Shown piece by piece: positions 12,795-34,069 of a stretch of DNA of 64,000 bases. The DNA is from an uncultured bacterium (GTDB taxonomy: Bacteria; UBP4; UBA4092), in the NCBI GenBank assembly GCA_964644695.1, contig CAZXWN010000007.1:26610-90609 (forward strand), written 5' to 3'. How positions within the stretch are numbered: position 1 is the stretch's first letter; each line of letters opens with the position of its first letter. A program made the translations under genes and the position numbers. A model generated the notes under the pieces. That model did not search any database. It saw only the letters and a list, made by a program, of their open reading frames with translations, and was not told where the DNA came from.

Positions 12795-14229
12795 TTCTAA
12801 TCCCCCAGGTGACGGGGTGAGTCCTGCAGGTTTGTTTTACGACTTTAATGGGAACTACAATAGCTTTGTTGCAACCCCCAGGTGATGGGGTGAGTCCTGC
12901 AGGCCAATCCACTGCCTCAATTTCTCATGATTCAATCCGTAAAAGTTGCAACCCCCAGGTGATGGGGTGAGTCCTGCAGGTTTTGTGGTAGGTACAATTG
13001 GTGGCTGGGCAAAATACGTTGCAACCCCCAGGTGATGGGGTGAGTCCTGCAGGTTAATTAAGATAAGGATGGTATGTTATGGCCAATAAAGATGTTGCAA
13101 CCCCCAGGTGATGGGGTGAGTCCTGCAGTAATTGGAGTAATTCTTTTAATTGTCGGACTTATATTTGTTGCAACCCCCAGGTGATGGGGTGAGTCCTGCA
13201 GTTATCATGAACTTTACTCTTTTTGGTTTACAGGTAAAAGTTGCAACCCCCAGGTGATGGGGTGAGTCCTGCAGGATGAAGAAGGTCTGGTAAGGTTTAA
13301 AGTTTCTCCTAAGTTGCAACCCCCAGGTGATGGGGTGAGTCCTGCAGCTAATATGCGAAATGTATCCTCATGGAACTTCGTTTTGTTGCAACCCCCAGGT
13401 GATGGGGTGAGTCCTGCAGGAGTTATAAATGCTGGAAGGAAGAATGCCCAAAAGGTTGCAACCCCCAAGTGGTGGGGTGTGTCCTGCAGATGTCAAAACT
13501 GCCATGAAATGTATCAAGTTCGACAAGTTGCAACCCCCAAGTGGTGGGGTGAGTCCTGCAGGATTTAGAAAAAGATCTCCCTATACTTAAAGGCAGGGAG
13601 TTGCAACCCCCAGGTGATGGGGTGAGTCCTGCAGGAATATATTGCCTATGTTCTACCCCAAAGGTAGATGCGCGTTGCAACCCCCAGGTGATGGGGTGAG
13701 TCCTGCAGGGAACCTCTCGAAAAATGGTGGAAAGAAGAACCTTCTTGTTGCAACCCCCAGGTGATGGGGTGAGTCCTGCAGGTCAAATGATTTTGGTTAG
13801 TTGTGATGTATCTAATGCTTAGTTGCAACCCCCAGGTGATGGGGTGAGTCCTGCAGGGTAGCAATAATGATGCAGCGAAATTTACTGCTCAAGCCAAGTT
13901 GCAACCCCCAGGTGATGGGGTGAGTCCTGCAGGTTGTTGCTCATAGTGGTGATGGGCAACAACTTTGTGTGTTGCAACCCCCAGGTGATGGGGTGAGTCC
14001 TGCAGGAAGGATGGTTGGTTGAAAATCTACTGTCTATGCTCTAATCGTTGCAACCCCCAGGTGATGGGGTGTGTCCTGCAGGAATGCACGGAAGACGAAG
14101 ATGTAAAAAGTTTAGAAGAGTTGCAACCCCCAGGTGACGGGGTGAGTCCTGCAGGTCAGGAAAAGTTATGATAGAAGTATACAAAGCGGAAACGTTACAA
14201 CCCCCAGGTGATGGGGTGTGTCCTGCAAC
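12795..14229. CRISPR. CRISPR array 1: about 20 repeats of 36 nt, 19 spacers of 36 to 41 nt
   Basis: Repeat GTTGCAACCCCCAGGTGATGGGGTGAGTCCTGCAGG starts at 12868, 12945, 13018, 13094, 13167, 13240, 13313, 13385, 13454, 13526, 13599, 13674, 13747, 13822, 13898, 13971, 14047, 14120 and 14194. The first copy (12795) has its first 7 nt replaced (ttctaat). The last copy (14194) carries 3 to 4 substitutions. Repeats at 13454 and 13526 share the variant CCAAGTGGTG. Spacers are unique. Confidence 0.95.
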
Positions 14230-14290
14230 TATCAATTGTCAAAGACTTCGTCATCCCTTCACTGGAATGACTGGGATAAACCCTTCCATC
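14203..14290. repeat. about 88-bp direct duplication, copy 1 (array-1 terminal repeat plus flank)
   Basis: CCCAGGTGATGGGGTG(t/a)GTCCTGCAACTATCAATTGTCAAAGACTTCGTCATCCCTTCACTGGAATGACTGGG.TAAACCCTTCCATCCC recurs at 14888 to 14976. Confidence 0.85.
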
Positions 14291-15045: not shown

Positions 15046-16104
15046 CTATTCTTCCATCTCTTCAGGCATGGAAAAATAACCATAACCTGCGGCCGTCTTC
15101 CCACCGGCACCATATTCAGTCACTGCCTTTTCAAAGATTTCTTTAATATTGGTCTCCAAATCGGGAGTGGGGGTACCCAACAGCTTTTCGGCTTCTGGAT
15201 AAAGAGGTTTCAACTGGAACCAGAATTCAAAGACCGTCTCGGGCCGAACCGCCAGAAAGAGAAGTGGATTGGGATCTTGATCATCCGAAGGTGGAGTGGT
15301 GCTGCCCTCCTTATAATATTCTCCATAGTGAGGGGTCATGACATCTATCTGAAGGATATTTTCCTGTCCTGGTACTGGGAGTGCATCAAGACAAACCAAA
15401 AGCCCCCCGGTCTGTTTATTCTCATCAAGCAGAAACTCAATGGTGGATAGGATATCCTTCCAGGGAGAGTCGTCAAACCCTTCCATTTTTTTCCATGGAC
15501 CTATCTTTGCCTTTAATGTTTCAAGTATGGAAATTGGACATTGAGGACCATATTCTTTTTTGTTGTCATCATCAACAGGTCTTCTTACCGTAATGGAACC
15601 AAATAAGACATGGATTTTTTTAAGTGTATTTAGAAAATCATACAAATAATCGGGAACATCTTTATTGCAATCACCCGGCAATTTATGTTCTTTTACTTTT
15701 TCAAGAAAGACATCCACACATTCCATTTCTGCCGTATGATGAAGAAGACCTTTCAGACTGCTGCCCGGGAGATAGGGGAATCCCAGGAAATGATGCAGTT
15801 GTATTCCCGTTTCCAACGCTGGATTGGTACCCCAACCATTCACCATCCGCCAGACCAGAGTGGCTTCATATCTAAATTGCCCTTCCAGAGACTTGATCGA
15901 ACTGGTATATGCCGTATGCCAGGATGCGTACTTTGAATTCATTATCGTATTAACACGACTGGCAATGTCTTCCAGAAAAACTCTTCGCGCTTCTTTGGTT
16001 TCAAAATTATTTGCATTGTCATACTGATGGAATTTATGGTATACCAAGGTGGGGGAAATACCCGCATGGGTTACTGGTGTTCCATTAGCAATCGTAGTAA
16101 TCAT
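15046..16104 (-). CDS. cmr6: type III-B Cmr6 (Cas7-family RAMP)
   Basis: FLGFPYLPGSSLKGLLHH RAMP motif and C-terminal glycine-rich loop GAGGKTAAGYGYF. Last gene of the cmr operon. Start placed at the internal Met (MITTIANG) to avoid the overlap with cmr5. Confidence 0.7.
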   Translation of the reverse strand: MITTIANGTPVTHAGISPTLVYHKFHQYDNANNFETKEARRVFLEDIASRVNTIMNSKYASWHTAYTSSIKSLEGQFRYEATLVWRMVNGWGTNPALETGIQLHHFLGFPYLPGSSLKGLLHHTAEMECVDVFLEKVKEHKLPGDCNKDVPDYLYDFLNTLKKIHVLFGSITVRRPVDDDNKKEYGPQCPISILETLKAKIGPWKKMEGFDDSPWKDILSTIEFLLDENKQTGGLLVCLDALPVPGQENILQIDVMTPHYGEYYKEGSTTPPSDDQDPNPLLFLAVRPETVFEFWFQLKPLYPEAEKLLGTPTPDLETNIKEIFEKAVTEYGAGGKTAAGYGYFSMPEEMEE

Positions 16105-16106
16105 CT

Positions 16107-16487
16107 TTATTCCCCTTTTGCCTCTACAGCCCGTTTCAACCAACCGGCATATTCAATAGCTTCCTCGGTCAAATCCCGTAACTGCGTCCCATTGAGAGGT
16201 CGCTGATTTTGATTGTTTTGATTCCCGATCCACCGTTTAAAAGAATCTTCAGGAGTTCCTTCACACAACTCTCTCATCTGACTATCCAGATAATTATTTA
16301 ACTCTTGAGCAATCTCTGAATACTTACCATCTTTTTTACCTTTTGCCATAAGGAAAGCCCATGTTGCCAACAACCCGTTGGTCCGGAGCAGCATGGGTAA
16401 TTTCTTAGCAATATCTCCATCAATATTCTCGGCAGCAGCATAGGCATATTGTGCCCGGGTCTGTTCACGATTCGGCATCTTTATCAC
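16107..16487 (-). CDS. cmr5: type III-B Cmr5 (Cas11 small subunit)
   Basis: 126 aa alpha-helical protein between cmr4 and cmr6, with the LPMLLRTNGLLATWAFL segment typical of Cmr5. Confidence 0.7.
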   Translation of the reverse strand: MIKMPNREQTRAQYAYAAAENIDGDIAKKLPMLLRTNGLLATWAFLMAKGKKDGKYSEIAQELNNYLDSQMRELCEGTPEDSFKRWIGNQNNQNQRPLNGTQLRDLTEEAIEYAGWLKRAVEAKGE

Positions 16488-16494
16488 TCCTTTT

Positions 16495-17334
16495 CTATAA
16501 CCAAGTCAGGGAAGTCAGACCAAAACCAATAGATTCATGGCCCCCGAAGAACAGGGATTTAGCCGATGGCAGGGCCTCGGTTAATTTCCTCATCACCTTA
16601 TCCCCACTCAAAGTATTACCCTGAGTACGGCTTTGGGTGGCACCGACAAATCCATAGAACACCGATTCGGCAGGAACAGCTTCAACAGAGAACAGCGCGG
16701 TTCCCTCCACAGTTTTCGCAGAGTTTAGTTTATTATGTTGAGTGACAATAGTGGCCTGATTCACCATCTGGAAGAAAGTCCGGTCACTGACATACACCAC
16801 AGAAGGATTTTCTTTTCCAGGGATAGTTATCGGGAATGTAAAATCACCCCCTCGGGAGAATTTATATTCTTCCAGGTAAAGAGATGTATCCCCCTGAGTC
16901 AATCCATAATAGTGGGTGTCATCGGGACTGGGAGGTACTTCCCAGGCAGGATCCTCCGTCCCAAAATATCCCACTTCTTCTTTATAGCGTTTCAGGACAA
17001 AGGGACAAGTGATCCAACAGAACACATTATGAGATGACCGGACGGGGAATAACAGAAGATGGGCATCCACCACAGACACACAACCCGCAGTCATTTCTTC
17101 CAATTCTTTACCGAAAAGAATCTTTGCTTCATCTGGGTTGATCCCCTCATATTTATCACGGAAAACACCCCGGATACCAGAACCCGGCATATAAGGATAA
17201 CCGGTAGTTCGTTCTCGGATCACAGGCAAATCTACCACTCCCACATCCTGGCCACAACCAATATGCAGGGGAGTCACACAGCGGTATAACATGGTTTTGA
17301 ATTGATACTCTGACATCTTATTTATATCCTCCAT
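16495..17334 (-). CDS. cmr4: type III-B Cmr4 (Cas7 backbone subunit)
   Basis: TPLHIGCGQDVGVVDLPVIRERTTGYPYMPGSGIRGVFR and DAHLLLFPVRS match the Cmr4 N-terminal signature, including the catalytic Asp region. 279 aa. Confidence 0.85.
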   Translation of the reverse strand: MEDINKMSEYQFKTMLYRCVTPLHIGCGQDVGVVDLPVIRERTTGYPYMPGSGIRGVFRDKYEGINPDEAKILFGKELEEMTAGCVSVVDAHLLLFPVRSSHNVFCWITCPFVLKRYKEEVGYFGTEDPAWEVPPSPDDTHYYGLTQGDTSLYLEEYKFSRGGDFTFPITIPGKENPSVVYVSDRTFFQMVNQATIVTQHNKLNSAKTVEGTALFSVEAVPAESVFYGFVGATQSRTQGNTLSGDKVMRKLTEALPSAKSLFFGGHESIGFGLTSLTWL

Positions 17335-17340
17335 TTATTC

Positions 17341-18477
17341 TTACTTCATGAATTCATCAACAGCATGACAACCAGGGAAGAGGAGTGTCCCAGTATGACC
17401 TTCAGCGCCAATATCTAAAGGAACACTACCAAAGAATCTAGCCCTTAAAAATAATGCAACACCAATATATTGGTTGGGAGCCAACTCCATTACTTTCAAA
17501 AATAATGGACTGGCTCGACGAGTGACAGCAGCTGTATATTTAATATCCCAACCGTTATTTTGGGATTTTGGATGATAGGGCATCCCATAGGCTATTCGCT
17601 CAGGAATATGCGTAATTGGACCACTAGGATTTGCTGCATCAGCAGCCTCCCATCCATGGTCTTGGAAACCTATTGGCGAAGAAGCGGGAGGATTGAACCG
17701 ATCATACAATCGGACATCCTTGAATCGCTGGTAGAAGTCCTTCCATATCGTATCGTAAGAAGTAGCTACAGGGAACAACTTGCAGGCTGTGTCTGGATTC
17801 CAGAAAGCTGAAAAGGAAGGTTTAGCTTTAGCAACGGATTTCCTCTCAATAAAAGGTGTCCAACCATTTTTTTCAAACCAGTCATTGTAGTTCCCCTGAT
17901 ATTGGGGAATAAAATCCCCAATTACCTTTACAGAACCAAAACCTCGGCGGCTCCTCGCTCCAACACCTCCAAAGAAATGCAGGAGTGTAAGGGCAAGTTT
18001 TAGTCCTTCAATCTGTTCAGGAGTTCCTATTGCCTTAAACCCAAAGGTGGTTCCCGCAGGAATGACATCCCGATACATATTTCTATTATGCGAGGTAGCA
18101 GTTCTATTGCTATACCCCATGGGCCCATATCCAAGATACGCAGCTGCTGAACCTGCTCCTGCCACTAAAGGTTCTGCTTTAAAGTCTGGTATCTCAGTCG
18201 GTATGATCCTAACCCCCTGATAACGTTTCGCATCTCCAAATACTTTCGATTCTTCTTCCTTCAACCTTTCCAGAGAAAGCCCTCCATGAATAGACCGGTA
18301 CCAAAACCGAAGGACTCCCTTTAGAGAGGGAATACGGAGACCATCTCCATCCGGACCAATGATGCGATGTTGTGTAGGTTTACCCTGATTATCAAAAACG
18401 CCCGGAACTTTTTTATTCATAGCGCCGGCAATAAATGCGGGTGTAACCAGTTTTATCTTGAATTCCAATACAGGCAT
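17341..18477 (-). CDS. cmr1: type III-B Cmr1-like RAMP (Cas7 family)
   Basis: LRIPSLKGVLRFWYRS motif (RAMP G/S-S-hKG plus RFW.R) and a glycine-rich segment. 378 aa. Assignment to Cmr1 rather than another Cas7 paralogue comes from the motif and from elimination of the other subunits. Confidence 0.5.
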   Translation of the reverse strand: MPVLEFKIKLVTPAFIAGAMNKKVPGVFDNQGKPTQHRIIGPDGDGLRIPSLKGVLRFWYRSIHGGLSLERLKEEESKVFGDAKRYQGVRIIPTEIPDFKAEPLVAGAGSAAAYLGYGPMGYSNRTATSHNRNMYRDVIPAGTTFGFKAIGTPEQIEGLKLALTLLHFFGGVGARSRRGFGSVKVIGDFIPQYQGNYNDWFEKNGWTPFIERKSVAKAKPSFSAFWNPDTACKLFPVATSYDTIWKDFYQRFKDVRLYDRFNPPASSPIGFQDHGWEAADAANPSGPITHIPERIAYGMPYHPKSQNNGWDIKYTAAVTRRASPLFLKVMELAPNQYIGVALFLRARFFGSVPLDIGAEGHTGTLLFPGCHAVDEFMK

Positions 18478-18495: not shown

Positions 18496-19434
18496 TCATA
18501 AAGGTTCTGTAACAGGGTTTTCTTCCCAAACATTGTTCAATATAATTCCAATTCCCATATTGATACTGACTAAAAGAAGTAATGTAGAAAAATCAGGTTC
18601 GATCGCTGTAAGCAGGGGATATCCCAGGAGAACAATCAGCGTAGAATGAGAAAAACCCGTAACTACCACCATCCCCGCGCGCTTCATCAGGCTCGTCTGC
18701 GGGACCCCATGCTCCAGACGATGCGCTATTTCCAACATAAGATAACCGGTAGAAATCAGAACCACCACAGCCGAATAAAAGAGAAGTAAACAGGGGGGAG
18801 GTTTTAATACTTGCTCCACAACGCTATCTGCGGTCAATAGAAAGAGAAAACCGACCAGTGCGGTAGCAGCTAATCGAGGGATCAAAGACTGGATAGCATT
18901 CAACCATGGAACACCACAACAATGCATCATAAGGAGAATCATAAAATATCCAGCAACAGGCAGAAGCCATGCAACCCCGGAAGAGAACATCCACAGCCCT
19001 AATAATGGAAATAAAAGCATGATCATGGGAACCAGCCATGCACCATCCGAGCAAAACCCATACACCTGCCGCGCATAATCCAAACGATACCGCCGTAAAA
19101 ACCAATAGAAGAAATGGTCCTGATAGTAAGCCCACGTTATAATACTCTGCTTATCATTTAATTCATCTTTTACGAAGATTAACTTTCCATTATTTATACT
19201 ATTAGTAATATTTAGAAGGTGCTCGTCCCTGCTAATGTTGCTATATTTTTCCCAAAAAGCTTTAGAGGAACCACACATTCTTGATGGCTCATTTGACATC
19301 ACCCACTTGATCCAATGTAATAATGAGTCAACTTTCTTGCATGACTCAACATCCTTCAAAACAGTAACGCAATCATCGTACTGTTGAAGAGATTCATTAA
19401 TTTGTTTGGAGGTATCAATATCGTCTAATTTCAT
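18496..19434 (-). CDS. CRISPR-associated integral membrane protein: about 130-aa soluble N-terminal domain plus 6 predicted TM helices. Candidate effector.
   Basis: Hydrophobic segments at roughly aa 135 to 155, 158 to 180, 190 to 212, 222 to 245, 262 to 285 and 290 to 308. Its start overlaps the stop of the upstream CARF gene (ATGA at 19431 to 19434). Embedded between cmr1 and the CARF gene. Confidence 0.6.
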   Translation of the reverse strand: MKLDDIDTSKQINESLQQYDDCVTVLKDVESCKKVDSLLHWIKWVMSNEPSRMCGSSKAFWEKYSNISRDEHLLNITNSINNGKLIFVKDELNDKQSIITWAYYQDHFFYWFLRRYRLDYARQVYGFCSDGAWLVPMIMLLFPLLGLWMFSSGVAWLLPVAGYFMILLMMHCCGVPWLNAIQSLIPRLAATALVGFLFLLTADSVVEQVLKPPPCLLLFYSAVVVLISTGYLMLEIAHRLEHGVPQTSLMKRAGMVVVTGFSHSTLIVLLGYPLLTAIEPDFSTLLLLVSINMGIGIILNNVWEENPVTEPL

Positions 19435-20201
19435 TTGAAGTCACGATTATATCGACTAGGTTCATAAGCGGCGGGCTGATCATTATGATCAAGACCAATT
19501 TCATATACCTTATTACTTTTAGATGATTCATGAAGATAGATTGCAATCACCTTATCTTTTTTCAACAAACGAGCCGGATGAATCCCATAGATTTTATACC
19601 CTCCGCTGATATTGAAAACCAATTCAGCCCATTCAGCTCCAAGCATGTTCACATATTTTTCACAGGCAGCTGAATATTCCCTCATAGCACCCGTTAAAGA
19701 GCCAGGCTCTGTTGCTGAAAAATCATTTATAGGTTCAAGATCTACTTCCCATCCAGAGAAGTCAGTCATCCATTTCTCTAAATAAGCCTTTGTATGCTTT
19801 GCGATTGCACGACTATCATTATTACCTTCGTCACAAAACAGAACGACCTTATACTCTGACAGATTTTCTTTCCAGAATTTGCCATGATCAATAGATTGAA
19901 CATACAGCAGTGTTGTCGCGATTTCAGCACTATACCTCATTTCAGAACCAAGCGCTGGGTCTACCAAAGCCTGTAAGAAATGGGTAACATTATTCTCACT
20001 ATTGAGAATCTTTGTACTAAGATCTTCTTTTATTGTTGTAGCATTTTCTGATGTAGCTCTGGAAGATGGAAGTCCATAAAAAGGAGTCCACTCTGGATAG
20101 GCCTTTGGCATCCATCCAGCAAAATTCCAAGAGGCAGAAGTATATAGAGAAGTCCCAATGGTGATTATGAGAAGTTTATTTTGTTGCTGTGTTTTTTTCA
20201 T
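19431..20201 (-). CDS. CARF-domain protein (cOA sensor or ring nuclease), 256 aa, no fused effector domain
   Basis: KLLIITIGTSLYTSASW (CARF beta1-GTS motif) and LVFNISGGYKIYG (second CARF signature, h-T/S-GG-x-K). No HEPN R-x4-6-H, PIN or wHTH motif detected. Confidence 0.6.
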   Translation of the reverse strand: MKKTQQQNKLLIITIGTSLYTSASWNFAGWMPKAYPEWTPFYGLPSSRATSENATTIKEDLSTKILNSENNVTHFLQALVDPALGSEMRYSAEIATTLLYVQSIDHGKFWKENLSEYKVVLFCDEGNNDSRAIAKHTKAYLEKWMTDFSGWEVDLEPINDFSATEPGSLTGAMREYSAACEKYVNMLGAEWAELVFNISGGYKIYGIHPARLLKKDKVIAIYLHESSKSNKVYEIGLDHNDQPAAYEPSRYNRDFK

Positions 20202-21366
20202 AATTATCGTCTTTCAATCCTTCCAGATGTTTTTTTATCCACAACAGTCTTTTAGAAAGATGTCTGTCAACCACATGGCCCTGACACCAATTTTTTACAA
20301 TACAAAAGGAATCATCCCAAACCAATTGGTTTGTTACTGCTATTAGGAATAATTTATATTCTTCTGTCTTTCCCTTTTTTGCTTTCGCTAAACAAAAGGC
20401 AGCAGTTTTCTCCAAGCCCTGAAGTTTCCATCGAGTTTCAAAATCACAAGCAATCGTGAATATTTTCTTTTGGAGTTCTGGAGTCCATTTGCTAACCAAA
20501 CCAAAAGTATCTATAAAACACTTTTCATAGATATACTCGGGTTCTTGATTTATGGTCTGAATTTCTGGCTGACCTTTTGTTTGAGAAACTTCACAGATGT
20601 CTATAAAGCCTTTTCCACAATTTTCTGAACTCCCTGCCTGATATTGACCCGCCAATCTGATGTCAGCAGGGATTTCTTTACTAAGATTTATCTGAGAGAT
20701 AAAGATGGATCGTGATGGAATATATTCAATCTTGCGCAGGCTTTTCCCTTCAGCAACGCCATAATCCGTTATTTTTGTTTGTTTAAAAACAACTCTGACT
20801 TGATCCCACATTTTCTTAGCGATATTGTCACCCGCAACAATCCAACGACTTCTTTTATCAATTCCCGATAAGATAAAAAGAGCCGAAATATCATAGTTAC
20901 CTAAACAAAAGCATGGATAATTGAACGAATTTGTAACTTTTCCCGTCCAATCATCTTCAGCAATGTAATTAAAAGTTGTTGCATCAAAACCTATTAATTT
21001 ACAAATCGCCATCAGATTGGACAGAGGGAAAACCCAGTGAATGACACCGTTTAGATCTGGAAAGGGGAAACACAACAGAATCCCATCGCCAAAAACTATA
21101 CGGCTGGGAATCCTTTGAGTTAAGAATTTTCCATCTTCACCTATACTTCCGTCTGGTGAGCCAAATATTTCCGTTCGTTTTGTATTCAAAAGGACATTCT
21201 CCAGCCGGCCAGCAATAACCCCTTTGAGTGCACTATCCGGAATAATAGGGAGGCCGGAATAGGCATCCTTCTGGGTAGGCCGGTCAATTGTAGAAGTTCC
21301 TGTTCCCGCGCCAAAATTGGCAGGTGTTATGAGTTTGATTCTGAGGAATTGTTTTTCCATTACCAT
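20176..21366 (-). CDS. additional Cas7-family RAMP with about 140-aa C-terminal extension of unknown function
   Basis: GLPIIPDSALKGVIAGRLE RAMP motif and G-rich loop GQYQAGSSENCGKGF, then a further extension with no recognisable motif. Start taken at the MVMEKQ Met overlapping the cmr3 stop (ATGGTAATGG). Confidence 0.55.
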   Translation of the reverse strand: MVMEKQFLRIKLITPANFGAGTGTSTIDRPTQKDAYSGLPIIPDSALKGVIAGRLENVLLNTKRTEIFGSPDGSIGEDGKFLTQRIPSRIVFGDGILLCFPFPDLNGVIHWVFPLSNLMAICKLIGFDATTFNYIAEDDWTGKVTNSFNYPCFCLGNYDISALFILSGIDKRSRWIVAGDNIAKKMWDQVRVVFKQTKITDYGVAEGKSLRKIEYIPSRSIFISQINLSKEIPADIRLAGQYQAGSSENCGKGFIDICEVSQTKGQPEIQTINQEPEYIYEKCFIDTFGLVSKWTPELQKKIFTIACDFETRWKLQGLEKTAAFCLAKAKKGKTEEYKLFLIAVTNQLVWDDSFCIVKNWCQGHVVDRHLSKRLLWIKKHLEGLKDDNYEKNTATK

Positions 21367-22502
21367 ACCCCCACAAATACCCGGCCTAACCCCGTATGAT
21401 AATACGAGGTTTGAAGACAGGCCATCCAATGATCTTTAATGATTTTCTCTTTTGATATTTCTTCCGGCCAGGTGTAATAGAAAATAGACCCCGCAGGATA
21501 AAGCCAGAGCATTTCCCGGGGTTGATGTGCCATGGCATCCCAGCCACTGATATAAACAGGTTTACCTAAAGCAGCAGCGACAGGGGCCTGATTTACAACT
21601 TTCGGATAGGAATCTTCAACCAACATCGGAGTCATCAAATACAGGAAGAAACCTTTTGAGGCTTGTGCTTTATTTGTAACCTTCTGTCTCAAGTCTTCAA
21701 AGGGAGCTTGACTCTCACTGGCATTCACAGATACTCTTCGGAGGTCTCCCCCACAAAAGCCTGTACGCGATTTCAGTTGTGTAGTCTCCAGGGTTTGATA
21801 CCATAAGACAAATCGAGCTGTCTCATAAGCCGCGCCCGGATTCACTTTACCTTTAAAACGGCGATAGGGTCGATTAAACAAATAACTTTCGACTGTCTGG
21901 TTGGTTGCATTATTCATCATCAGACCAATCCGGTTTTCCCGTCGCCATAATTCTTTGGGCTCTATCCATTGGTGGCGGATATCGCCATCGACATCCCCAG
22001 TCAAGACCTTTTGCAGTAAATCAATACTTACAAGGATATCCATTGTATCTTCTTGATATCCACCATCCCTGATTGGTTCTGTCTTTAATAAGTGAGTTTT
22101 CATCTTTAGATCTATAGAGCTGGCCATTGGCTCCGTATCCCGGGGGACTGGAGTCAACAAATCATGGATGTATTTTGCAGCTGGATTTATGGGGCTGGAT
22201 TTTAACCGCAGACATAAGGGTTTAGGAAACCAGATTTTTCCATCAGGACCTTGCAGAGCATATCCAGCAAGTGAAGCAGTACCCTCATTTTTATCAGCAA
22301 TGGTTGACAGCTTTTTTCCTAATACTTTTTCATCCCATTTTTTATCATTCAAATCAAGGAAATACTGAACCACCGCTCCATGTAAAGTCAGTGGAGAAGG
22401 GTCTTGATACTCAAACTGATGGTCCATCCCCGGTCGAGTGGACCGGCTATCGCTAAACAGAAGAGGGTCTAACGGACTCAATGTTATCTCATGCCAGACC
22501 AT
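21360..22502 (-). CDS. cmr3: type III-B Cmr3 (Cas5-family)
   Basis: ITLSPLDPLLFSDSRS and DPSPLTLHGAV match the Cmr3 N-terminal signature (LDpLfFRDgRPF ... PPsPsTlaGAl). C-terminal HTGLGRVFVG glycine loop. Confidence 0.8.
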   Translation of the reverse strand: MVWHEITLSPLDPLLFSDSRSTRPGMDHQFEYQDPSPLTLHGAVVQYFLDLNDKKWDEKVLGKKLSTIADKNEGTASLAGYALQGPDGKIWFPKPLCLRLKSSPINPAAKYIHDLLTPVPRDTEPMASSIDLKMKTHLLKTEPIRDGGYQEDTMDILVSIDLLQKVLTGDVDGDIRHQWIEPKELWRRENRIGLMMNNATNQTVESYLFNRPYRRFKGKVNPGAAYETARFVLWYQTLETTQLKSRTGFCGGDLRRVSVNASESQAPFEDLRQKVTNKAQASKGFFLYLMTPMLVEDSYPKVVNQAPVAAALGKPVYISGWDAMAHQPREMLWLYPAGSIFYYTWPEEISKEKIIKDHWMACLQTSYYHTGLGRVFVGVW

Positions 22503-22504
22503 GA

Positions 22505-24250
22505 TTATTTTGCCTCCATGCTTTTGATGCCCCATTCATTGGACAGGAATGCCACCAGATGAAACCAAGTGGGGATCTGTTCCAGATGAGCCGGTTTTTC
22601 AGTCCACCATGTAGCACCATTAAGAGTGTCCCAGATGGTGTTTTTTTCTGTGTTATTTAGTTTCGGAGACAGCCTGCGGAAGGTCAACCGTTTAACTTCA
22701 CATCGAATGGCATTTCTACCCATGGGGCTATCCCAAGTGTTGGAGTCCAGAGATTCCAGGAAGGATTCCACATCATAGGCCCATCCCATGGATAACGTTC
22801 CTTCTTCAATTAATTTCAACACTTCATTAAACCGGCTCCAGCTGTCCCACTTATCCGCAGTGTACCATTCATTCCCAGAGGCAGTCTGAACAGCCACAGC
22901 CAGCGCATCTTTCCCCATCACTTTCTTGGCATAATGTTCCAAAGCCACCCTTGCCGCCATTTCTAATCCCCGAGACATGGGGCGCTGCCGGTCGAAAAAG
23001 GAGATACCCACAGAGAGGGTTGCACCGGTTGCAATACTCCCATTCCAAAGTTTATGTATTTCTGTTGCCAGTGGGAAAACTTTCTCCACGGGACAAAGGA
23101 TCATACCCTCATCCCCCCCCAAATATAGAGAGGTACAACAGTGTTCTTCTACTTTTGGTCTCAGGTCTTTTGTAAATTGAAGGAGTTTTTCAGGAAGGGA
23201 ATCCATGTGCTGACGGATTTTCTCACCCATAGAATCGCCATCAAAAGTCAGCGCTGCAAGATATTGGGAAGGTTCATCTTTCACTGTTTTACCTGACTTG
23301 CCTGCTGCATTAATCGCCGTTTTGACGATACCGTTCCATTTGTCTCTTTTATCACTAAGTTCTGGGAATAGTATGGCTTTGGCGGCCCAGGACCGTTTGT
23401 ATATCAAGGGATATTTGTCACTGAGTTTATAGTCCGAGCAGTCCTCTTTAAAAATTTCCGATACTTTTTCTTCAAGGCCAAGTTCCTTTAACCAGAAGGC
23501 GGCGGCAATCTGGGAGGTTGAAGGGAAGGAATCCTCTTCACTCAGATAACTTGCCAACCGTTTTATCAAACAGATACCACATAGCCGCTCATTCTCATCA
23601 ATCCGAAATCCTTTTTTTACAAAATCTTTGTCAGCAAGGTCCTTATGGAATTTATTCCATTCTGGGAAAGTTGTTTCCCCAATAGCTTCTCGTTTTCCAC
23701 ACTGGTTACACTTACCTACAGGGTAACCTTTCCAGGGATAAATAGGACGAGTTTGTTTGACGGCAGAATAGAGCTTTTCTAAATCCTCGTAACAGTTGGG
23801 ATCGTTTTGGTTATATTCCTTGATGACCCAGACTAAATCAAAGGGACATTTTATACAATTCAGAAAGCCTCTCACTTCATGCCATAGTGATACATAAGTC
23901 CCGTCGGCAAAAGCAACTTCCGTTAACAAACCATGCCAGGCATCACGGATTTGCTTTTTACCCTTTGCCATCCTTATTTTTGCCTCTTCCAATGACACGT
24001 CATCTTTCCAATACCCGGTAGCTCGATTAGGAAGGTTGTATTGGTCGCTATCATAATGGGACTTAAAATCCCCAAGCGACAGTTCACCCGTTAATTTGGG
24101 AAGAACGATTTCGGTTGGGCTGATTTGTACCAAGACTTGTTTCATCATCCAGGACAGGAGAACAGAACCTGCCTTCAGATCTCTGGACCGGGTGGCCTCC
24201 AGAATAAAATCCTGGACGGGGATAATACCAATTGTCCAGTAAACGGTCAT
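22505..24250 (-). CDS. cas10: Cas10/Cmr2 large subunit lacking an HD nuclease domain, with GGDE cyclase-palm motif
   Basis: About 580 aa. ALTFDGDSMG (first palm) and LYLGGDEGMIL (second palm, GGDD-like). Treble-clef Zn finger CNQCGKRE...CGICL between them. No N-terminal H-D motif. Positioned between cas6 and cmr3. Confidence 0.7.
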   Translation of the reverse strand: MTVYWTIGIIPVQDFILEATRSRDLKAGSVLLSWMMKQVLVQISPTEIVLPKLTGELSLGDFKSHYDSDQYNLPNRATGYWKDDVSLEEAKIRMAKGKKQIRDAWHGLLTEVAFADGTYVSLWHEVRGFLNCIKCPFDLVWVIKEYNQNDPNCYEDLEKLYSAVKQTRPIYPWKGYPVGKCNQCGKREAIGETTFPEWNKFHKDLADKDFVKKGFRIDENERLCGICLIKRLASYLSEEDSFPSTSQIAAAFWLKELGLEEKVSEIFKEDCSDYKLSDKYPLIYKRSWAAKAILFPELSDKRDKWNGIVKTAINAAGKSGKTVKDEPSQYLAALTFDGDSMGEKIRQHMDSLPEKLLQFTKDLRPKVEEHCCTSLYLGGDEGMILCPVEKVFPLATEIHKLWNGSIATGATLSVGISFFDRQRPMSRGLEMAARVALEHYAKKVMGKDALAVAVQTASGNEWYTADKWDSWSRFNEVLKLIEEGTLSMGWAYDVESFLESLDSNTWDSPMGRNAIRCEVKRLTFRRLSPKLNNTEKNTIWDTLNGATWWTEKPAHLEQIPTWFHLVAFLSNEWGIKSMEAK

Positions 24251-25359
24251 ACGACACCCTCTCTTTCTGGTTTCATACAATGTATTTCATGACGGGGTCC
24301 ACTTTGTGTTTTCAGGTTAAGTTGATACCGTCCAAATCCATACTCAGTTTTTGAACCCACGCCCATGATCGCTCCCAGTTGGAGCCAGGGGATAAAGGGT
24401 GTCAGTTCTCCGGTATAAAAAGCAGTCCCCTGATATCCCTTTAATTTGATTTTTCCCGGGCCCGACTCAGGTCCAAAAGTTATTCTTTCCAAACGGCTGT
24501 GGATAGATTCCGCTTTCAGGATCAATTCCGAGAAACAAAACTCTTTTTCCAAATCCCGGCCGGTATAAAACCAGGCCAACAAGGATAGCCGGCGAAGCAG
24601 GCTTTGGATCAGAGCCGGAAACAGGGGAGGACAAAACATTTGATTGGGCTTTGCATATTTTTTACTTTTTATCAGGATGGGCCGTTGAAAATCTATCCGT
24701 ATCTGATCGGGAACAGACGAGGTATTTCTGTCCAGCGGGATCTCTTTGGCTCCGGGATACAGGTATTCCGTCAACCAGGTTTTATCATAGATTGGGCGAG
24801 TGACCCAGGTATGGTCTGGCTGACGGGTCTGGACAGCAACCAGTCTCAGGCGATGCCCGACATCCCCTACTCCCCGGTCACCCAGTTTCTCAAAGGCATG
24901 TAAAATCTCAGGGAGATCGTTCAGGCTCCGGCCCACAAGAGTCAATCCAACCACCAGCGAATCCTTTTTGTTTAGATAGGCCGGTAACGGTTGGGGGAAA
25001 TCCAGGATAAAGGGATGCGGTTTGTAGTCCATCTTGATCCGGTGTTCTTCACCGGCGATGATGGGAGTCCGGAACACTCGGGCAAAGGGACATTTTCTGG
25101 AATGGGAACGATACTCAGGACAGTCCTCTTCCCGACAGGGTTCTCCCGCAGGACAGGGAGATATTTCCTTGAGCTGGTTCCCAAACAATCCATGGAAAAA
25201 AGCAGCATCCCATCCACGATTGGTAGTAAAGGACTCAAGTGTCTCATATATAATTTTGAACTGCCAGAAAGGTATTATCCCTAACCCCTTTGGTCCATCC
25301 ACTGTTATTATTTGTTCTGCCATAGCGCCGTTAATCAATCCCCCAGATTGAATCAGCAT
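24247..25359 (-). CDS. cas6: Cas6-family crRNA endoribonuclease with Cys-rich insertion
   Basis: C-terminal GVGSKTEYGFG fits the Cas6 glycine-rich loop G-h-G-x5-G-h-G. First gene of the operon, adjacent to array 2. Unusual CPAGEPCREEDCPEYRSHSRKCPF cluster. Confidence 0.5.
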   Translation of the reverse strand: MLIQSGGLINGAMAEQIITVDGPKGLGIIPFWQFKIIYETLESFTTNRGWDAAFFHGLFGNQLKEISPCPAGEPCREEDCPEYRSHSRKCPFARVFRTPIIAGEEHRIKMDYKPHPFILDFPQPLPAYLNKKDSLVVGLTLVGRSLNDLPEILHAFEKLGDRGVGDVGHRLRLVAVQTRQPDHTWVTRPIYDKTWLTEYLYPGAKEIPLDRNTSSVPDQIRIDFQRPILIKSKKYAKPNQMFCPPLFPALIQSLLRRLSLLAWFYTGRDLEKEFCFSELILKAESIHSRLERITFGPESGPGKIKLKGYQGTAFYTGELTPFIPWLQLGAIMGVGSKTEYGFGRYQLNLKTQSGPRHEIHCMKPEREGVV

Positions 25360-25816
25360 TTTGTACAGGAATTTTATTTTCAGGACGGATGCAGGTATCC
25401 CTACCCCACAAGCAGGCTCAATATATCAAAGCTAATTAGTCAATGTCAAGTTTTATTTTTTAAAATTTTAAATGAAATAATCCTATTTTTTGGGATGAAT
25501 TATTGATGGGGCAAGTGGTATGGGTCTTAGAGGTCCCATGGGTCCGATAGGTCATAGTTCCCCAGATGATAGGAGGTGGTCCTGTGAGGAAACGTACCGT
25601 CCACAAGATTACAAGATGTGTCTGGATTGGAGGACCATTGAAAGATCATTGGACAAAGAACTTTTGGATTCCTGCTTTCGCAGGAATGACAGTCTGAAGT
25701 TATGCCTTGATGAATCCCCCAGGTGATGGGGTGAGTCCTGCAGGTCTTTCCAACAGCGGTTTATCAGGATTGGGGTTTTTGTTGCAACCCCCAGGGGGTG
25801 GGGTGTGTATTCCAAT

Positions 25817-25990
25817 GAAGATAATTATAGTTTCAGTTTTATAAAATAACTATCCTGTTCATGCCTTCACCAAACTCCTCCTTCAATACCTTTCAGACCA
25901 AACCAACCAATCGAATCTCTTAATGAAGTCTTGGACAAAGGACTTCTGGATTCCTGCTTTCGCAGGAATAACAGTCTGAAGTTATGTCTT
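25817..25990. repeat. leader-like module copy (AT-rich segment plus conserved 110 bp with ATTCCTGC-TTTC-GCAGGAAT hairpin)
   Basis: Near-identical copy at 26670 to 26843. Partial copies at 25590 to 25708, 26338 to 26412, 27407 to 27481 and 14585 to 14660. Variant copies carrying the GC-rich terminator-like hairpin instead lie at 26104 to 26242 and 14740 to 14880. Confidence 0.8.
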
Positions 25991-26195
25991 GATGAATCCC
26001 CCAGGTGACGGGGTGTGTCCTGCAGGGTCTCACTCTCTAATCCGATAGAGACCTGTGGTGTCTCAACGTTGCAACCCCCAGGTGATGGGGTAAGTATTTC
26101 GATGAAGATAATTATAGTTTCAGTTTCATAAAATAACTATTCTGTTTATACCTTCACTAAACTTCTCCTTCAATACCTTTCAGACCGAACCACCC

Positions 26196-26241
26196 CCCGG
26201 CTTCGCCGGACCCCTCCTTGGAAAGGCGGGGAGCTTTTTTA
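26196..26241 (+). terminator. GC-rich tandem hairpins plus T-run (terminator-like), copy 2, immediately upstream of mini-array 3
   Basis: Identical to 14771 to 14816 (CCGGCTTCGCCGG ... CCCCTCCTTGGAAAGGCGGGGAGCTTTTTT). Confidence 0.45.
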
Positions 26242-28127
26242 AAACCAATCCCCCAGGGGGTGGGGTATGTCCTGCAGGAGTGAATCTGGCAAGAGCACCC
26301 TGGGACGCTATTTAGTTGCAACCCCCAGGTGATGGGGAATCTTAATGAAGTCTTGGATAAAGAACTTCTGGATTCCTGCTTTCGCAGGAATGACAGCCGG
26401 AAGTTATGTCTTAATGAATCCCCCAGGGGGTGGGGTGTGTCCTGCAGGTCTTTAAAACTTTCCCTGATAAATTTTTGAATTGGGTGTTGCAACCCCCAGG
26501 TGATGGGGTGAGTCCTGCAGGACAACTAAAGCTGCGGAAGTAGAAGTGGCAGTCTCGCAAGGTTGCAACCCCCAGGTGACGGGGTGAGTCCTGCAGGTTC
26601 TGCAAAAGTTCTATTGATTTTTTCAGCAATATCGTTGCAACCCCCAGGTGACGGGGTAAGTGTTCCAATGAAGATAATTATAGTTTCTATTTCATAAAAT
26701 AACTATCCTGTTTATACCTTCACCAAAATTCTTCTTTAATGCCTTTCAAACCGAACTAATCAATCGAATCTCTTAATGAAGCATTGGATAAAGAACTTCT
26801 GGATTCCTGCTTTCGCAGGAATGACAGTCTGAAGCTATGTCTTGATGAATCCCCCAGGTGATGGGGTGAGTCCTGCAGGATATTCACTGAGTCTGACACA
26901 GTGATACATGCTGCGAATGGTTGCAACCCCCAGGTGATGGGGTGAGTCCTGCAGGTTCACATGAACCTCGATCTCGAAGAGAAAGGTTTGTTTCCTGTTG
27001 CAACCCCCAGGTGATGGGGTGAGTCCTGCAGGAATATAAAGAAACTTTGGATACCACAGGACAGGCTGGGTTGTTGCAACCCCCAGGGGGTGGGGTGAGT
27101 CCTGCAGGCCGTAAGGAAATGCCTGCTGCATTGTTTCGCCGTAATCAGTTGCAACCCCCAGGTGATGGGGTGAGTCCTGCAGGGTAGTATTGAAAACTAC
27201 TCGGTGGGTGCTAGAAACCGGTTGCAACCCCCAAGTGATGGGGTGAGTCCTGCAGGTATTTTACAATCCATATTCATATCAATACGAATCTTTTCCGTTG
27301 CAACCCCCAGGTGACGGGGTGTGTCCTGCAGGATATTGATCTGTAAACTCACAAAGGGCTGTTGTTTGATGTTGCAACCCCCAGATGATAGGGTGATTCT
27401 TGATAAAGATAATTATAGTTTCAGTTTTATAAAATAACTATCTACCTTCACCATAACCTTCCTTCAATACCTTTTGAACCAAACCAATCCCCCAGGTGAT
27501 GGGGTGTGTCCTGCAGGCTCAGGGCGAATGGGCGTATGCCGAGACTATGCATTGGTTGTTGCAACCCCCAGGTGATGGGGTGAGTCCTGCAGGATTGGAA
27601 AAGAAGTTACTATTTATGTCTTTATTGGTTGCAACCCCCAGGTGATGGGGTGAGTCCTGCAGGTGCACCCCATCTAACCCTAATAAAATCAGGGGCGGGG
27701 AAGGCCATTTTCGGGGGTGACGATAAGACCTGCTTGACAAACCCCTCTAATGGTCCGGTTTTGGTATTTAAGTCAAATATTATCAATAGTCGGTGCTGAC
27801 AACCTGCTCATTTTCTGATAACCTGTTGATTGTCAAAGACTTCGCCATTCCTTTGCCGGAATGACAGGGTGTTTCAGGGTGTGCCCCGATGTCTTTTCGT
27901 ATCAGAGAGTTAGTTCATTTGTCAAAAAGACAGGGGAAAACCCTCTATCCCAATAAGGTATCCAGACCCGATTCGTATCTGCTTCGTTACTTTTGGATAT
28001 CGTGCCAAACATGAACCGTACCTGTCAAGTTACCTTAATTAAGTTCTTTTGTAAAGAGGGGGAAAGTGAGGGGGAGGAGAAAAGAAACGGGGCGGAAGGA
28101 AATCCGCCCCGGAGGTAAGTCTATTTT

Positions 28128-31533: not shown

Positions 31534-32628
31534 TTATTTCTTGACGGGAGCAGGTTGACCTTTTGCAGGAGCTGTAGTGCTAACAGACTGAGGAGCAGCA
31601 ATCATCTTCTTATATTGCGGGGAAGATAAGTAGGCGACCCGTTGTTTGATTTCATTCATAACTTTGGGATTCTTGTTCCGCTTCGCAACCATACCTAATA
31701 ATTCGGAGGCTTTTGCAGGGTCTTTCAAGTTAAAGGCATAGATTTCTGACATTTTGATGAGGGTACCATCCGCCTTGGCTTGAGCAATCAGGGTCTCTCT
31801 GGAACCCGCTGTTGTATCTTTGGAGGGTGCAGGGTATGCAGTGTAGGCTGAATAAGCAACTAAACCTTTTTTGTAATAAGATTTCGCTTTGTCAGTCTGT
31901 TTCAGGGCATCATAACTACCACCAATCAGAATATCTGAATACAGATAATAATCTTCAGCCATCTGATTATTCGGGAATTTGCTCTTAAGGGATTTCAGAG
32001 TCGCTTCGGTCTTGGAAATGGCAGTCGCCATGGCATAAGATTCAGCCAATGCAACATAACCCGAAATCAATAGAGCTTCCTTTTGATTTTTCGGCATTTG
32101 AGGAATGATACTGATGGTGTTGAGATAATCCTTATAGGCGGCTTCGGCTTTGGCAAACTCCCCAGTCACACTGTAAGAACGGGCGATGCTGTTTTTGGCT
32201 TCCAACATGGCATTACCATTGTTTGAATCAACCGCCAGCGTCTGCCATATTTCGCGAGCCTTCGTCCAATCTTTCTTTGCACCGTAACAATTCGCAATGG
32301 ACAGTTGAGCTCCGGCTTTTAAATCCTTATTATTGGGGTAATTGTCTATTGCTTTCTGGAATTCCTTGATAGACCGGTCAAACTGGCCCATGCGGGCATA
32401 TGAATCCGCAATATTCATCTGAGCAAATGCAGACCGTTCATCCTTGGGATATCTTTCAATAAACTCTTCCAGTTTAGCCACTGCACCGGCGATATCGCCA
32501 GTCTTATTGGCTTCCTGAACCTCGGCGATGAGTTTCTCCGGGGTTTTACGGGCACAGCCTGTCAATACCATCATGGACAGAGCACCGCAAATCACACTCA
32601 TTTTCAGCAGGGTACGAATGTTAAACAT
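31534..32628 (-). CDS. TPR-repeat lipoprotein
   Basis: Signal peptide plus lipobox (MMVLTGCA), then multiple TPR-like repeats. Start taken at the internal Met to avoid overlap with the upstream gene. Confidence 0.55.
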   Translation of the reverse strand: MFNIRTLLKMSVICGALSMMVLTGCARKTPEKLIAEVQEANKTGDIAGAVAKLEEFIERYPKDERSAFAQMNIADSYARMGQFDRSIKEFQKAIDNYPNNKDLKAGAQLSIANCYGAKKDWTKAREIWQTLAVDSNNGNAMLEAKNSIARSYSVTGEFAKAEAAYKDYLNTISIIPQMPKNQKEALLISGYVALAESYAMATAISKTEATLKSLKSKFPNNQMAEDYYLYSDILIGGSYDALKQTDKAKSYYKKGLVAYSAYTAYPAPSKDTTAGSRETLIAQAKADGTLIKMSEIYAFNLKDPAKASELLGMVAKRNKNPKVMNEIKQRVAYLSSPQYKKMIAAPQSVSTTAPAKGQPAPVKK

Positions 32629-34069
32629 ACTCTTCACTCTCTTCGTCTTTAGAATTTGACCGGCGGAAAGTCGAGGCAATCAGCCCCGCTCCCTCTCGGA
32701 TTAGGGTACTAAATTCATATAATGTCTTCACGCCTTTCAGCCGAAGCCACATATACCCTGGGCTTAAATGATACGACCGAATGGCATGATTGCGCAACTT
32801 CCAAAGTTTTTCTGGACTTAATTGGTCCGTTTTAATAACGGGGAAGGCTTCTGAATTATCCAATACATCGACATCGGCTGAAGTGTATCCCTTTTCAATG
32901 GCTTCTTTTCGGAAAGGGGTACCCATCTTCGGAGCGGCAATATTGAATGAGGCAAAATCAGGCAGTAATTCTTTGGCAAAATCAATGGTCATTTGGGCCG
33001 TTTCCTCAGTTTCGCCGGGCAGCCCAATAATAAAGTGCGCCAGGGTCCGTATTCCTTTTTTACGGCACAGCTTAAAGATATGGCGGACCTGGTCGGGCTT
33101 TACGCCCTTCTGGTAATGCTTCAATATCTCGTCTGAGGCAGACTCAACTCCGAACTGGATAGTATGGCAACCGGCTTTGGCCATCAGGTCCAAGGTATCT
33201 TCATCCATCACATCTACTCTGGACAGACAGACCCAACTTAACTTCATATTCTTGGAAATAAGCTGTAACAGGAACTCACGGGTCTGTTTCTTGTTCACGG
33301 CAAAGGTAAAATCTTTGATCCAGAATTCCTTGATTTTAAACTTACGGTGAAGATACTCTATTTCTGCAACAGCATTCTCAGGCTTCCGCAATTTTAACGG
33401 GACAATACTGGAAACACAGAAAGAACATTTGAAAGGACAGCCAAAATTAGTCAATGTACTGGCAAAAGGCATATATCGGCCATGGGGAATCCGATATTGT
33501 TTCCAGGGAAAGAGTTCCAGTTTGGGTAAAGGAAGTTCAAACTCTTTGTCTTCGGTATATCGCCGGCCTTCCAAAACTTCTCCGTTGTACCGGTAAGTAA
33601 TATAGTCCGTCTTCTCACCCTTTAAATCACCACGAAGGAACCGTAACAGAACATCCGACGTAAAATCCAATAGGGCTGCTGTTAGAAATTCATGCTTTGT
33701 CAATATTTCAGTGGACCGGGACAGGAAGATATCCCCTGTGGCCATCACAAGTTTGATGTCAGGCTTTTCTTTAAGTACCTGTTTTACAAAATCGAAGTCC
33801 TGAACCCAGGACACTCCACCCGTCAAGAAGAAAACAGCGTCTATCTCCATTGGCTTGATTTGTTTCAAAGCCTCTTCGGGAGACAACCTCAGAACATTGG
33901 CATCTAAAACGGTAATATCGTGTTCCTGAGCCAGAAAACCACTTTGGACGACTAAATCATAAGGATGCCAATAATAGCGGGCCTTACTGGCATGACTGCA
34001 ATAGTAATCGCGGAGATACAGCTGATCTCCCGGGGGATTTAATAATAATATCGAACGACGCGGTGACAT
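32621..34069 (-). CDS. B12-binding domain radical SAM protein
   Basis: N-terminal B12-binding-like Rossmann region and CPFKCSFC (CxxxCxxC) radical SAM cluster motif. 482 aa. Confidence 0.8.
   Translation of the reverse strand: MSPRRSILLLNPPGDQLYLRDYYCSHASKARYYWHPYDLVVQSGFLAQEHDITVLDANVLRLSPEEALKQIKPMEIDAVFFLTGGVSWVQDFDFVKQVLKEKPDIKLVMATGDIFLSRSTEILTKHEFLTAALLDFTSDVLLRFLRGDLKGEKTDYITYRYNGEVLEGRRYTEDKEFELPLPKLELFPWKQYRIPHGRYMPFASTLTNFGCPFKCSFCVSSIVPLKLRKPENAVAEIEYLHRKFKIKEFWIKDFTFAVNKKQTREFLLQLISKNMKLSWVCLSRVDVMDEDTLDLMAKAGCHTIQFGVESASDEILKHYQKGVKPDQVRHIFKLCRKKGIRTLAHFIIGLPGETEETAQMTIDFAKELLPDFASFNIAAPKMGTPFRKEAIEKGYTSADVDVLDNSEAFPVIKTDQLSPEKLWKLRNHAIRSYHLSPGYMWLRLKGVKTLYEFSTLIREGAGLIASTFRRSNSKDEESEEYV

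Follow-up and report, generated by a model that had tools for sequence, protein, structure and literature searches.

The DNA analyzed here is a stretch of 64,000 nucleotides (the window) from contig CAZXWN010000007.1 of the assembly GCA_964644695.1, which belongs to an uncultured bacterium of the UBP4 lineage (UBA4092). Our subject is a pair of overlapping genes within its type III-B (Cmr) CRISPR operon, one coding for a stand-alone CARF protein of 256 aa (19431..20201) and the other for a membrane protein of 312 aa (18496..19434). The operon lies on the minus strand, as do all its genes listed here, with the order cas6-cas10-cmr3-RAMP(Cmr4-like)-CARF-TM-cmr1-cmr4-cmr5-cmr6, where TM stands for the gene of the transmembrane (TM) protein. 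Pfam and NCBIfam profiles matched every subunit gene, namely cas10/cmr2 (22505..24280), cmr3 (21360..22535), cmr1 (17341..18477), cmr4 (16495..17334), cmr5 (16107..16487) and cmr6 (15046..16143), as well as cas6 (24247..25359), and CRISPR arrays are present on both sides, placing the system in type III-B. The pair is lodged between cmr1 and the gene for an extra Cmr4-like RAMP of 417 aa (20176..21429; Pfam/NCBIfam and PADLOC). An earlier reading made from the letters alone (hereafter the sequence-only reading) had placed it inside an otherwise complete type III-B operon, between the RAMP genes and cmr1, and the profile matches bear this out.

Cas10, the presumed signal synthase of the operon (Pfam/NCBIfam, PADLOC and motif reading), comprises only the Cmr2_N and palm2 domains, and its first 150 aa are free of HD dipeptides, which agrees with the earlier claim that it lacks the HD domain. 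Its palm features the motifs FDGD and YLGGDEG; the acidic residues are thus retained, but in the form GGDE rather than GGDD. The Cas10 proteins of related loci likewise keep [GA]GDE and FDGD without an HD domain, with [GA]GDE conserved in eight relatives; among the Cas10 genes of loci L001-L019, three code for AGDE in place of GGDE. PADLOC and Pfam searches of 20 open reading frames (ORFs) of at least 150 aa from 1 to 47 kb of the window (ORFs shorter than this or beyond 47.2 kb fall outside the scan) recovered no other cas gene and no other CARF or SAVED effector. Within this range, the locus also has no soluble nuclease effector, as the sequence-only reading had stated. Given the HD-less Cas10 and the lack of another known effector at the locus, that reading's view of the pair as the obvious signal-responsive output of the Cmr system stands.

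The CARF protein, read from 20201 to 19431, displays the two signatures of the domain, KLLIITIGTS (LIITIGTS at aa 10-18) and VFNISGGYK (NISGGYK at aa 197-203). It is recognized by the Pfam model Cas_APE2256 (PF09651) with 25.1 bits, just above the cut-off of 24.8, and its PADLOC matches are CARF_RelE (3.7e-7, covering only profile positions 2-142 of 294), Csm6-type CARF models and CARF7--CARF. Its orthologues give the same picture, with 15 of 16 matching Cas_APE2256 (best E 7.7e-10), 15 of 16 CARF_RelE and 13 of 16 CARF7--CARF. A profile of these 16 sequences searched against the PDB retrieved the CARF domains of Card1 (E 0.005) and of 8phb, described as 'APE2256 family' (E 0.11), and the lysine of the GGYK motif aligned with those of GGTK in Card1 and GGFK in 8phb. 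The earlier identification of a 256-aa CARF protein with both signatures and no effector domain is therefore backed by profile and structure-library searches alike. Only about 30 aa extend beyond the CARF core of the window protein, and RelE, HEPN and HTH domains are absent from all 16 orthologues (248-273 aa), in which the C-terminus comes soon after the core. Neither the window protein nor any of the 16 orthologues has the C-terminal RelE that would make it a Cami1.

We found 20 positions invariant across the 16 orthologues: T14, G16, S18, L19, S22, A23, W25, Y35, P45, R48, R89, S91, A92, E93, G200, G201, K203, Y205, Y222 and E225. These include the ligand-site motifs GTS (S18) and GGYK (K203). 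The family shares with Crn1 and Cami1 of the CARF7 clade a CARF7-type domain with GTS and GG[YF]K, and CARF_RelE and CARF7--CARF are its best PADLOC matches. It differs from them in lacking the RelE domain of Cami1, in having no detectable counterpart of the HTH of the large Crn1 enzymes, and in possessing an insertion at about aa 20-90 with its own invariant W25, Y35, P45 and R48 and a nearly invariant W38, all five of which lie outside the match to the Pfam CARF model (aa 89-227).

These affinities raise a first alternative, to which we accord a real but clearly minor probability: the membrane protein might be a self-contained sensor-effector, with its own N-terminal domain binding the Cas10-made signal in the manner of Csx23, while the CARF protein serves as a Crn1-like ring nuclease expressed alongside it, in the role of off-switch or antidote. 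The window CARF is of the CARF7 type, a clade that includes the Crn1 large ring nucleases and the self-limiting Cami1 (PMC12409355, PMC9638899), and it retains both the Ser (GTS) and the Lys (GGYK) used by the Crn1 enzymes. However, Card1 conserves the same two residues without cleaving cyclic tetra-adenylate (cA4), and they are found in cleaving and non-cleaving CARFs alike (PMC9638899). Because of this, the sequence does not separate a ring nuclease from the sensor half of a split module.

The two genes overlap in an ATGA: positions 19431-19434 read TCAT on the plus strand, such that the CARF stop codon TGA shares nucleotides with the ATG of the membrane gene, exactly as described in the sequence-only reading. 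No obvious Shine-Dalgarno sequence is seen 5' of this overlap. In 18 other loci, the candidate starts of the membrane gene fall between -26 and +39 nt from the CARF stop. Word-indexed searches returned just 3-4 relatives per protein (3 for the membrane protein), and a first genome scan with an alignment of close relatives gave no matches. An exhaustive profile search with the membrane protein recovered 174 clusters at E<=1e-3, of which 101 reach E<=1e-10, almost all of 310-380 aa and matching through the final residue.

The resulting loci come from metagenomes and metagenome-assembled genomes of Acidobacteriota (Thermoanaerobaculia, Holophagales and Aminicenantes are named) and Deltaproteobacteria. 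Their gene neighborhoods consistently show the order cas10-cmr3-RAMP-CARF-TM-cmr1-cmr4-cmr5-cmr6, with cas6 in front in some; it is found in at least 14 loci, at a membrane-protein identity of 22-37%. Homologues this divergent in a kept order indicate that both genes are real rather than chance ORFs. Wherever a related locus includes upstream DNA (16 of 16), the gene immediately upstream of the membrane gene codes for a homologue of the window CARF, in the same operon position; the coupling noticed at a single locus thus extends to its relatives. The short branches of the membrane family are associated with cas10 in every locus with enough flanking DNA. Flanking genes of the related loci code for reverse transcriptase (RT), Cas1, Cas2, transporters and proteins of no assigned family, none of them a known effector. 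Pfam matches among 10 immediate neighbors were confined to RT, Cas1, MFS and DUF3560, and PADLOC matches for 53 flanking ORFs were all to Cas1 or RT among the 25 most frequent families listed, a tally that could hide rare effector matches.

This synteny bears directly on the notion that both genes are hitch-hikers or unrelated chance insertions in the operon. The existence of a large cas-free branch of the membrane superfamily, described below, would be in keeping with such an origin, but the identical placement in at least 14 divergent loci, the gene overlap, the supported identity of the CARF protein and the cas10 linkage of the short branches all contradict it, and we regard it as effectively refuted. 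The explanation that we favor for these patterns is that the two genes constitute an ancillary module, fixed and two-component, in a distinct lineage of Cmr systems.

The membrane protein, read from 19434 to 18496, has a soluble start of about 125 aa followed by six hydrophobic segments in its hydropathy profile. An AlphaFold2 (AF2) model built on an alignment of 84 sequences (pLDDT, for predicted local distance difference test, 89.2; pTM, for predicted template modeling score, 0.88) shows an all-helical N-terminal domain and six TM helices at aa 129-148, 157-172, 186-209, 214-239, 246-274 and 282-305. A model from only four sequences had given the N-terminal domain a pLDDT of 59, which the larger alignment remedied. 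Hydropathy and model agree with the earlier description of an approximately 130-aa soluble N-terminus and six hydrophobic helices. On the DNA, the predicted cytosolic N-terminal domain (aa 1-125; AF2) is coded by 19060..19434, the six-helix TM bundle (about aa 127-302; hydropathy and AF2) by 18529..19056, and the C-terminal tail WEENPVTEPL-COOH (aa 303-312; alignment) by 18499..18528, all on the minus strand. No sequence or fold similarity to any solved structure was found in PDB libraries to April 2026, and two longer members of the family, P0143 and P0110, were examined as possible CARF-TM fusions and are not.

Conservation is distributed unevenly along this protein. No other segment of the superfamily is as conserved as the tail, which has a mean entropy of 0.85 bits in the 84-sequence alignment versus 2.0-3.0 for the TM helices and 2.8 for the N-terminal domain (aa 1-100), whose length also differs between branches. 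Nearly every member in every branch bears the tail in the form W-[ED]-[ED]-x-P-[VLI]-T-x-P-L-COOH, always at the extreme C-terminus; in the AF2 monomer model, residues 306-312 are non-helical and of low confidence. Further near-invariant residues are W111, R115 and A121 in the juxtamembrane helix, P186-R187, R239, position 242 (Pro in 96% of the relatives and His in the window protein) and R252, along with G296 inside TM6, which is invariant. Apart from G296, they map to helix ends predicted to be cytoplasmic in the model if the N-terminus is taken to be inside. The N-terminal domain showed no recognizable nucleotide-binding fold in profile and fold searches and is the least conserved part of the protein, which tells against the alternative in which it would bind the signal itself. 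We also considered a PEP-CTERM-type sorting signal for the tail and rejected it, as the order of motifs is wrong and the tail comes after the last TM helix.

The sole library match of the window membrane protein is to the PADLOC family Mem_01 (PDLC01155), defined as 'Membrane protein (6TM) with a globular domain at N-terminus', with E 2.2e-6 over aa 154-277, corresponding approximately to TM2-TM5. Of its 84 relatives, 41 match the same profile (best E 2.7e-10). The two families have in common their architecture and the C-terminal tail motif. The match of the window protein does not extend over the full length of the profile, whereas the 467-aa protein P0113 is a genuine Mem_01 member (1e-28 over profile positions 73-438 of 440). 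P0113 is longer and only distant kin of the window protein, and it is adjoined by a 287-aa CARF7-RelE protein (1.8e-19, with the RelE part covered).

This last arrangement matches the description of Cam3 and Cami1. Cam3 was reported from 12 type III-B loci as an N-terminal helical soluble domain with a six-helix TM bundle, always adjoins a gene annotated as Cami1 and was suggested to be an accessory protein (Hoikkala 2024, PMC11229360). The window protein resembles Cam3 in its helical N-terminal domain, six-TM bundle and type III-B setting, a comparison made from the description only. A possible difference lies in the neighbor, which is annotated as Cami1 in the case of Cam3 but in the window is a CARF7-type protein with CARF_RelE as its best PADLOC match and yet without RelE. 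Based on the Mem_01 matches of 41 of the 84 relatives and the arrangement around P0113, we read the window protein as a shorter sister family (about 310-380 aa) within a Cam3/Mem_01-like superfamily. The sequence-only reading had taken the architecture to be undescribed; in that form this is not supported, since Mem_01 and Cam3 (PMC11229360) already describe six-TM proteins with an N-terminal domain. A 'trans-membrane' accessory cluster, C3a59, was listed by Shah 2018 and may be the same thing as the Mem_01/Cam3 family. Our literature search found no follow-up on Cam3, and Mem_01, Cam3 and C3a59 are uncharacterized.

The Cam3 precedent is also the natural home of a further alternative, namely that the membrane protein has an accessory or anchoring role, in which it tethers either the CARF protein or the Cmr complex as a whole, or modulates signaling, with the real output located elsewhere in the genome. 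Besides the accessory role suggested for Cam3 (PMC11229360), membrane anchoring has been proposed for uncharacterized type III membrane proteins (Shmakov et al.). The pair further sits amid the genes for complex subunits rather than at the edge, the usual site of swappable effectors, and the neighbor of the Mem_01-branch protein P0113 has a RelE effector of its own. Nevertheless, a CARF protein without an output domain, in examined loci with no other effector, would leave the system without a known output, and an anchor would hardly require a six-helix bundle in which intramembrane and interface residues are invariant. We consider this explanation improbable.

Other CRISPR-linked branches of the superfamily differ in the receiver that accompanies the membrane protein. 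P0107 (419 aa) lies in a csm (type III-A) operon followed by cas6 and is adjoined by a 261-aa CARF-only protein of the CARF1 type (2.9e-28). P0115 (428 aa), in a type III locus, has a 250-aa Cas_APE2256 protein upstream. In the case of P0144 (496 aa), which is followed by cas6, the upstream receiver is a 209-aa protein of the Cas_NE0113 family, which we take to be Csx14. Csx14 has been assigned to the Crn1 family (Hoikkala 2025, PMC12409355), and the P0144 branch thereby lends some weight to the ring-nuclease alternative. Conversely, the CARF1 partner of P0107 is Csx1-like and not from a dedicated ring-nuclease clade, and the non-CARF ring nucleases Crn2, Crn3, Csx16 and Csx20 were not seen replacing the CARF protein in any locus examined.

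Receivers of yet another kind accompany a branch outside CRISPR systems. Scanning metagenome contigs with a DNA pattern for the tail gave at least 120 matching stretches; the counts that follow refer to the 120 matches listed, among which 103 stretches code for a family member. The majority, 88, represent a longer form of about 520-560 aa with the tail LQL[ML]WE[DE][LI]PITEPL (L026-L145, e.g., L048:6871-11209), the lengths being approximate because gene starts are uncertain in GC-rich contigs. No cas genes were detectable near these 88 members. Instead, of the 26 longer-form loci with enough DNA, 25 have a co-oriented upstream gene for a response regulator with a REC domain, and the product of this gene matches the HupR1 receiver domain in the PDB (3e-28). 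Immediately downstream, 56 of 63 longer-form loci have a thioredoxin reductase gene (trxB, recognized from sequence motifs), and a glutamate-cysteine ligase, judged from sequence, is often found further upstream. The proximity of trxB suggested a CcdA/VKOR-like thiol transporter, an idea that we rejected as the family has no conserved cysteines.

The receiver family thus varies by branch (CARF7, CARF1, NE0113, CARF7-RelE and REC), while its adjacency to the membrane gene stays. With a REC gene upstream in the non-CRISPR branch, the combination of a soluble receiver and the six-TM protein gives the impression of a general design. The sequence-only reading had allowed that it would be undone if the CARF protein proved to be a Crn1-type ring nuclease acting alone and the membrane protein had homologues of unrelated function never linked to cas genes. 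This objection applies in part, as a large branch of the membrane family has no cas genes nearby. That branch, however, has a receiver-domain protein as its own partner, which argues for a split module and not against it. Since a REC protein cannot act as a ring nuclease, its presence in this position is also at odds with the ring-nuclease alternative.

Taken together, these contexts lead us to propose, from sequence comparisons and with confidence evenly poised, a split receiver/membrane-effector module, in which the receiver would sense the signal and act in trans on the membrane protein as the output. Three sets of observations lead to this proposal. First, the receiver is always just upstream and its family varies, whereas the six-helix bundle, its cytoplasmic face and the tail are constant. 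Second, the soluble domain of the membrane protein itself is its least conserved part, while the ligand motifs of the CARF protein are invariant. Third, no other output domain was found in the loci examined from the lineage of the window. In the mechanism that we envisage, Cas10 activated by target RNA binding would make a cyclic oligoadenylate, most likely cA4 because the CARF7 relatives Cami1 and Crn1 use it, and this signal would be bound by a CARF dimer. The liganded CARF could then engage the membrane protein in trans at the cytoplasmic face, with the variable N-terminal helical domain and/or the invariant tail W-E-E-x-P-V-T-E-P-L as candidate contacts. The six-helix bundle would switch its state, disturbing membrane permeability or potential, and growth of the infected cell would stop. 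Slow cleavage of the signal by the CARF protein may eventually reset the system. By analogy with Cam1, Csx23 and CorA, the output in the CRISPR setting is likely to be loss of membrane potential with growth arrest.

Several observations weigh against this proposal. Both CARF7 and Cas_NE0113 include ring nucleases of the Crn1 type. Ring nucleases are present in 81% of Cam1 loci (PMC12409355), and since membrane effectors usually co-occur with such enzymes, a ring-nuclease role would equally explain a strictly adjacent CARF protein. In the Mem_01/Cam3-like branch, the CARF neighbor brings its own RelE toxin, which makes an effector role of the membrane protein dispensable there. Finally, the non-CRISPR branch, with its trxB neighbor, looks more like housekeeping or regulation than a suicide pore.

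The split module would differ from the membrane effectors known from type III loci. Cam1, Csx23, Cap1, Chp1 and CorA have depolarization as their output following a Cas10-made signal, and they carry the sensor and the TM region in one polypeptide, whereas in the window the only recognizable sensor domain is on a separate protein. No fold similarity of the window protein to these five was seen in the PDB libraries, whose content for these effectors was not verified. The pair stands apart from the fused-sensor membrane effectors in architecture and, as far as those libraries go, in fold. More tentatively, with confidence somewhat short of even, we suggest that it represents the first split sensor/effector of type III systems: a six-helix, tail-marked module that might be switched in trans by any upstream receiver, whether from various CARF clades or, outside CRISPR, a REC protein; docking or gating would rely on a common element made up of the tail and the cytoplasmic face.

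Four features appear to be new relative to the published families: the CARF-only partner without RelE; the swapping of receivers between CARF clades, with REC taking their place outside CRISPR; the constant location of the pair within the Cmr subunit genes; and the near-invariant C-terminal tail W-E-E-x-P-V-T-E-P-L across the superfamily. The published Cam3/Cami1 pairs may in part be the same as the CARF-only/TM pair. The published list of Cami1 proteins (supplement of PMC11229360) contains entries too short for a RelE domain, e.g., from Pyrobaculum (237 aa) and Sulfolobus (277 aa), pointing to CARF-only proteins annotated as Cami1 in that dataset. Hence, some loci annotated with 'Cami1' may hold CARF-only partners of membrane proteins and call for caution. 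If our proposal is true, a free CARF protein controlling a separate membrane protein would constitute a new wiring of cyclic-oligoadenylate signaling to the membrane, and the so far unexplained Cam3/Mem_01 proteins would gain a function.

Some features of the surrounding region deserve mention in their own right. The RAMP and Cmr4 profiles match only about aa 26-276 of the Cmr4-like RAMP (20176-21429), and its C-terminal 140 or so residues match nothing. Its gene is directly 5' of the CARF gene in all related loci that reach far enough upstream, and this Cmr lineage thus has an additional Cas7-like subunit. On the far side of cmr6, the window features a CRISPR array of 20 repeats (12795..14240; repeat GTTGCAACCCCCAGGTGATGGGGTGAGTCCTGCAG). 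Repeats of the same GTTGCAACCCCCAGGTGATGGGGTGAGTCCTGCAG family recur upstream of cas6 (25700..27680) as four or five mini-arrays, interrupted by repeated, leader-like units of 110-250 nt. Each of these units comes after a degenerate repeat, giving the appearance of serial leader duplications, and an AT-rich unit, ATGAAGATAATTATAGTTTCAGTTTTATAAAATAACTATC, is found within this array at 25815, 26102, 26668 and 27403.

PADLOC detected no cas1 or cas2 in 1-47 kb of the window among ORFs of at least 150 aa (a Cas2 of about 90 aa is too short for this set), with arrays of about 40 repeats in all. In several related loci, RT and Cas1, or an RT-Cas1-Cas6 fusion, adjoin the operon. One such locus, L007 (9888-12716 and 12729-13209), codes for a 942-aa Cas6-RT-Cas1 fusion beside a 1320-aa protein with Pfam matches to AAA/NACHT-like domains and FtsH-type peptidase M41. 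Beyond the arrays of the window, the closest genes code for an MFS transporter and an alpha-galactosidase. Farther along, two adjacent paralogous ORFs of 482 and 469 aa (32621-34069 and 34076-35485) match the PADLOC candidate defense family PDC-M51A with E-values of 1.4e-10 and 1.2e-13, respectively.

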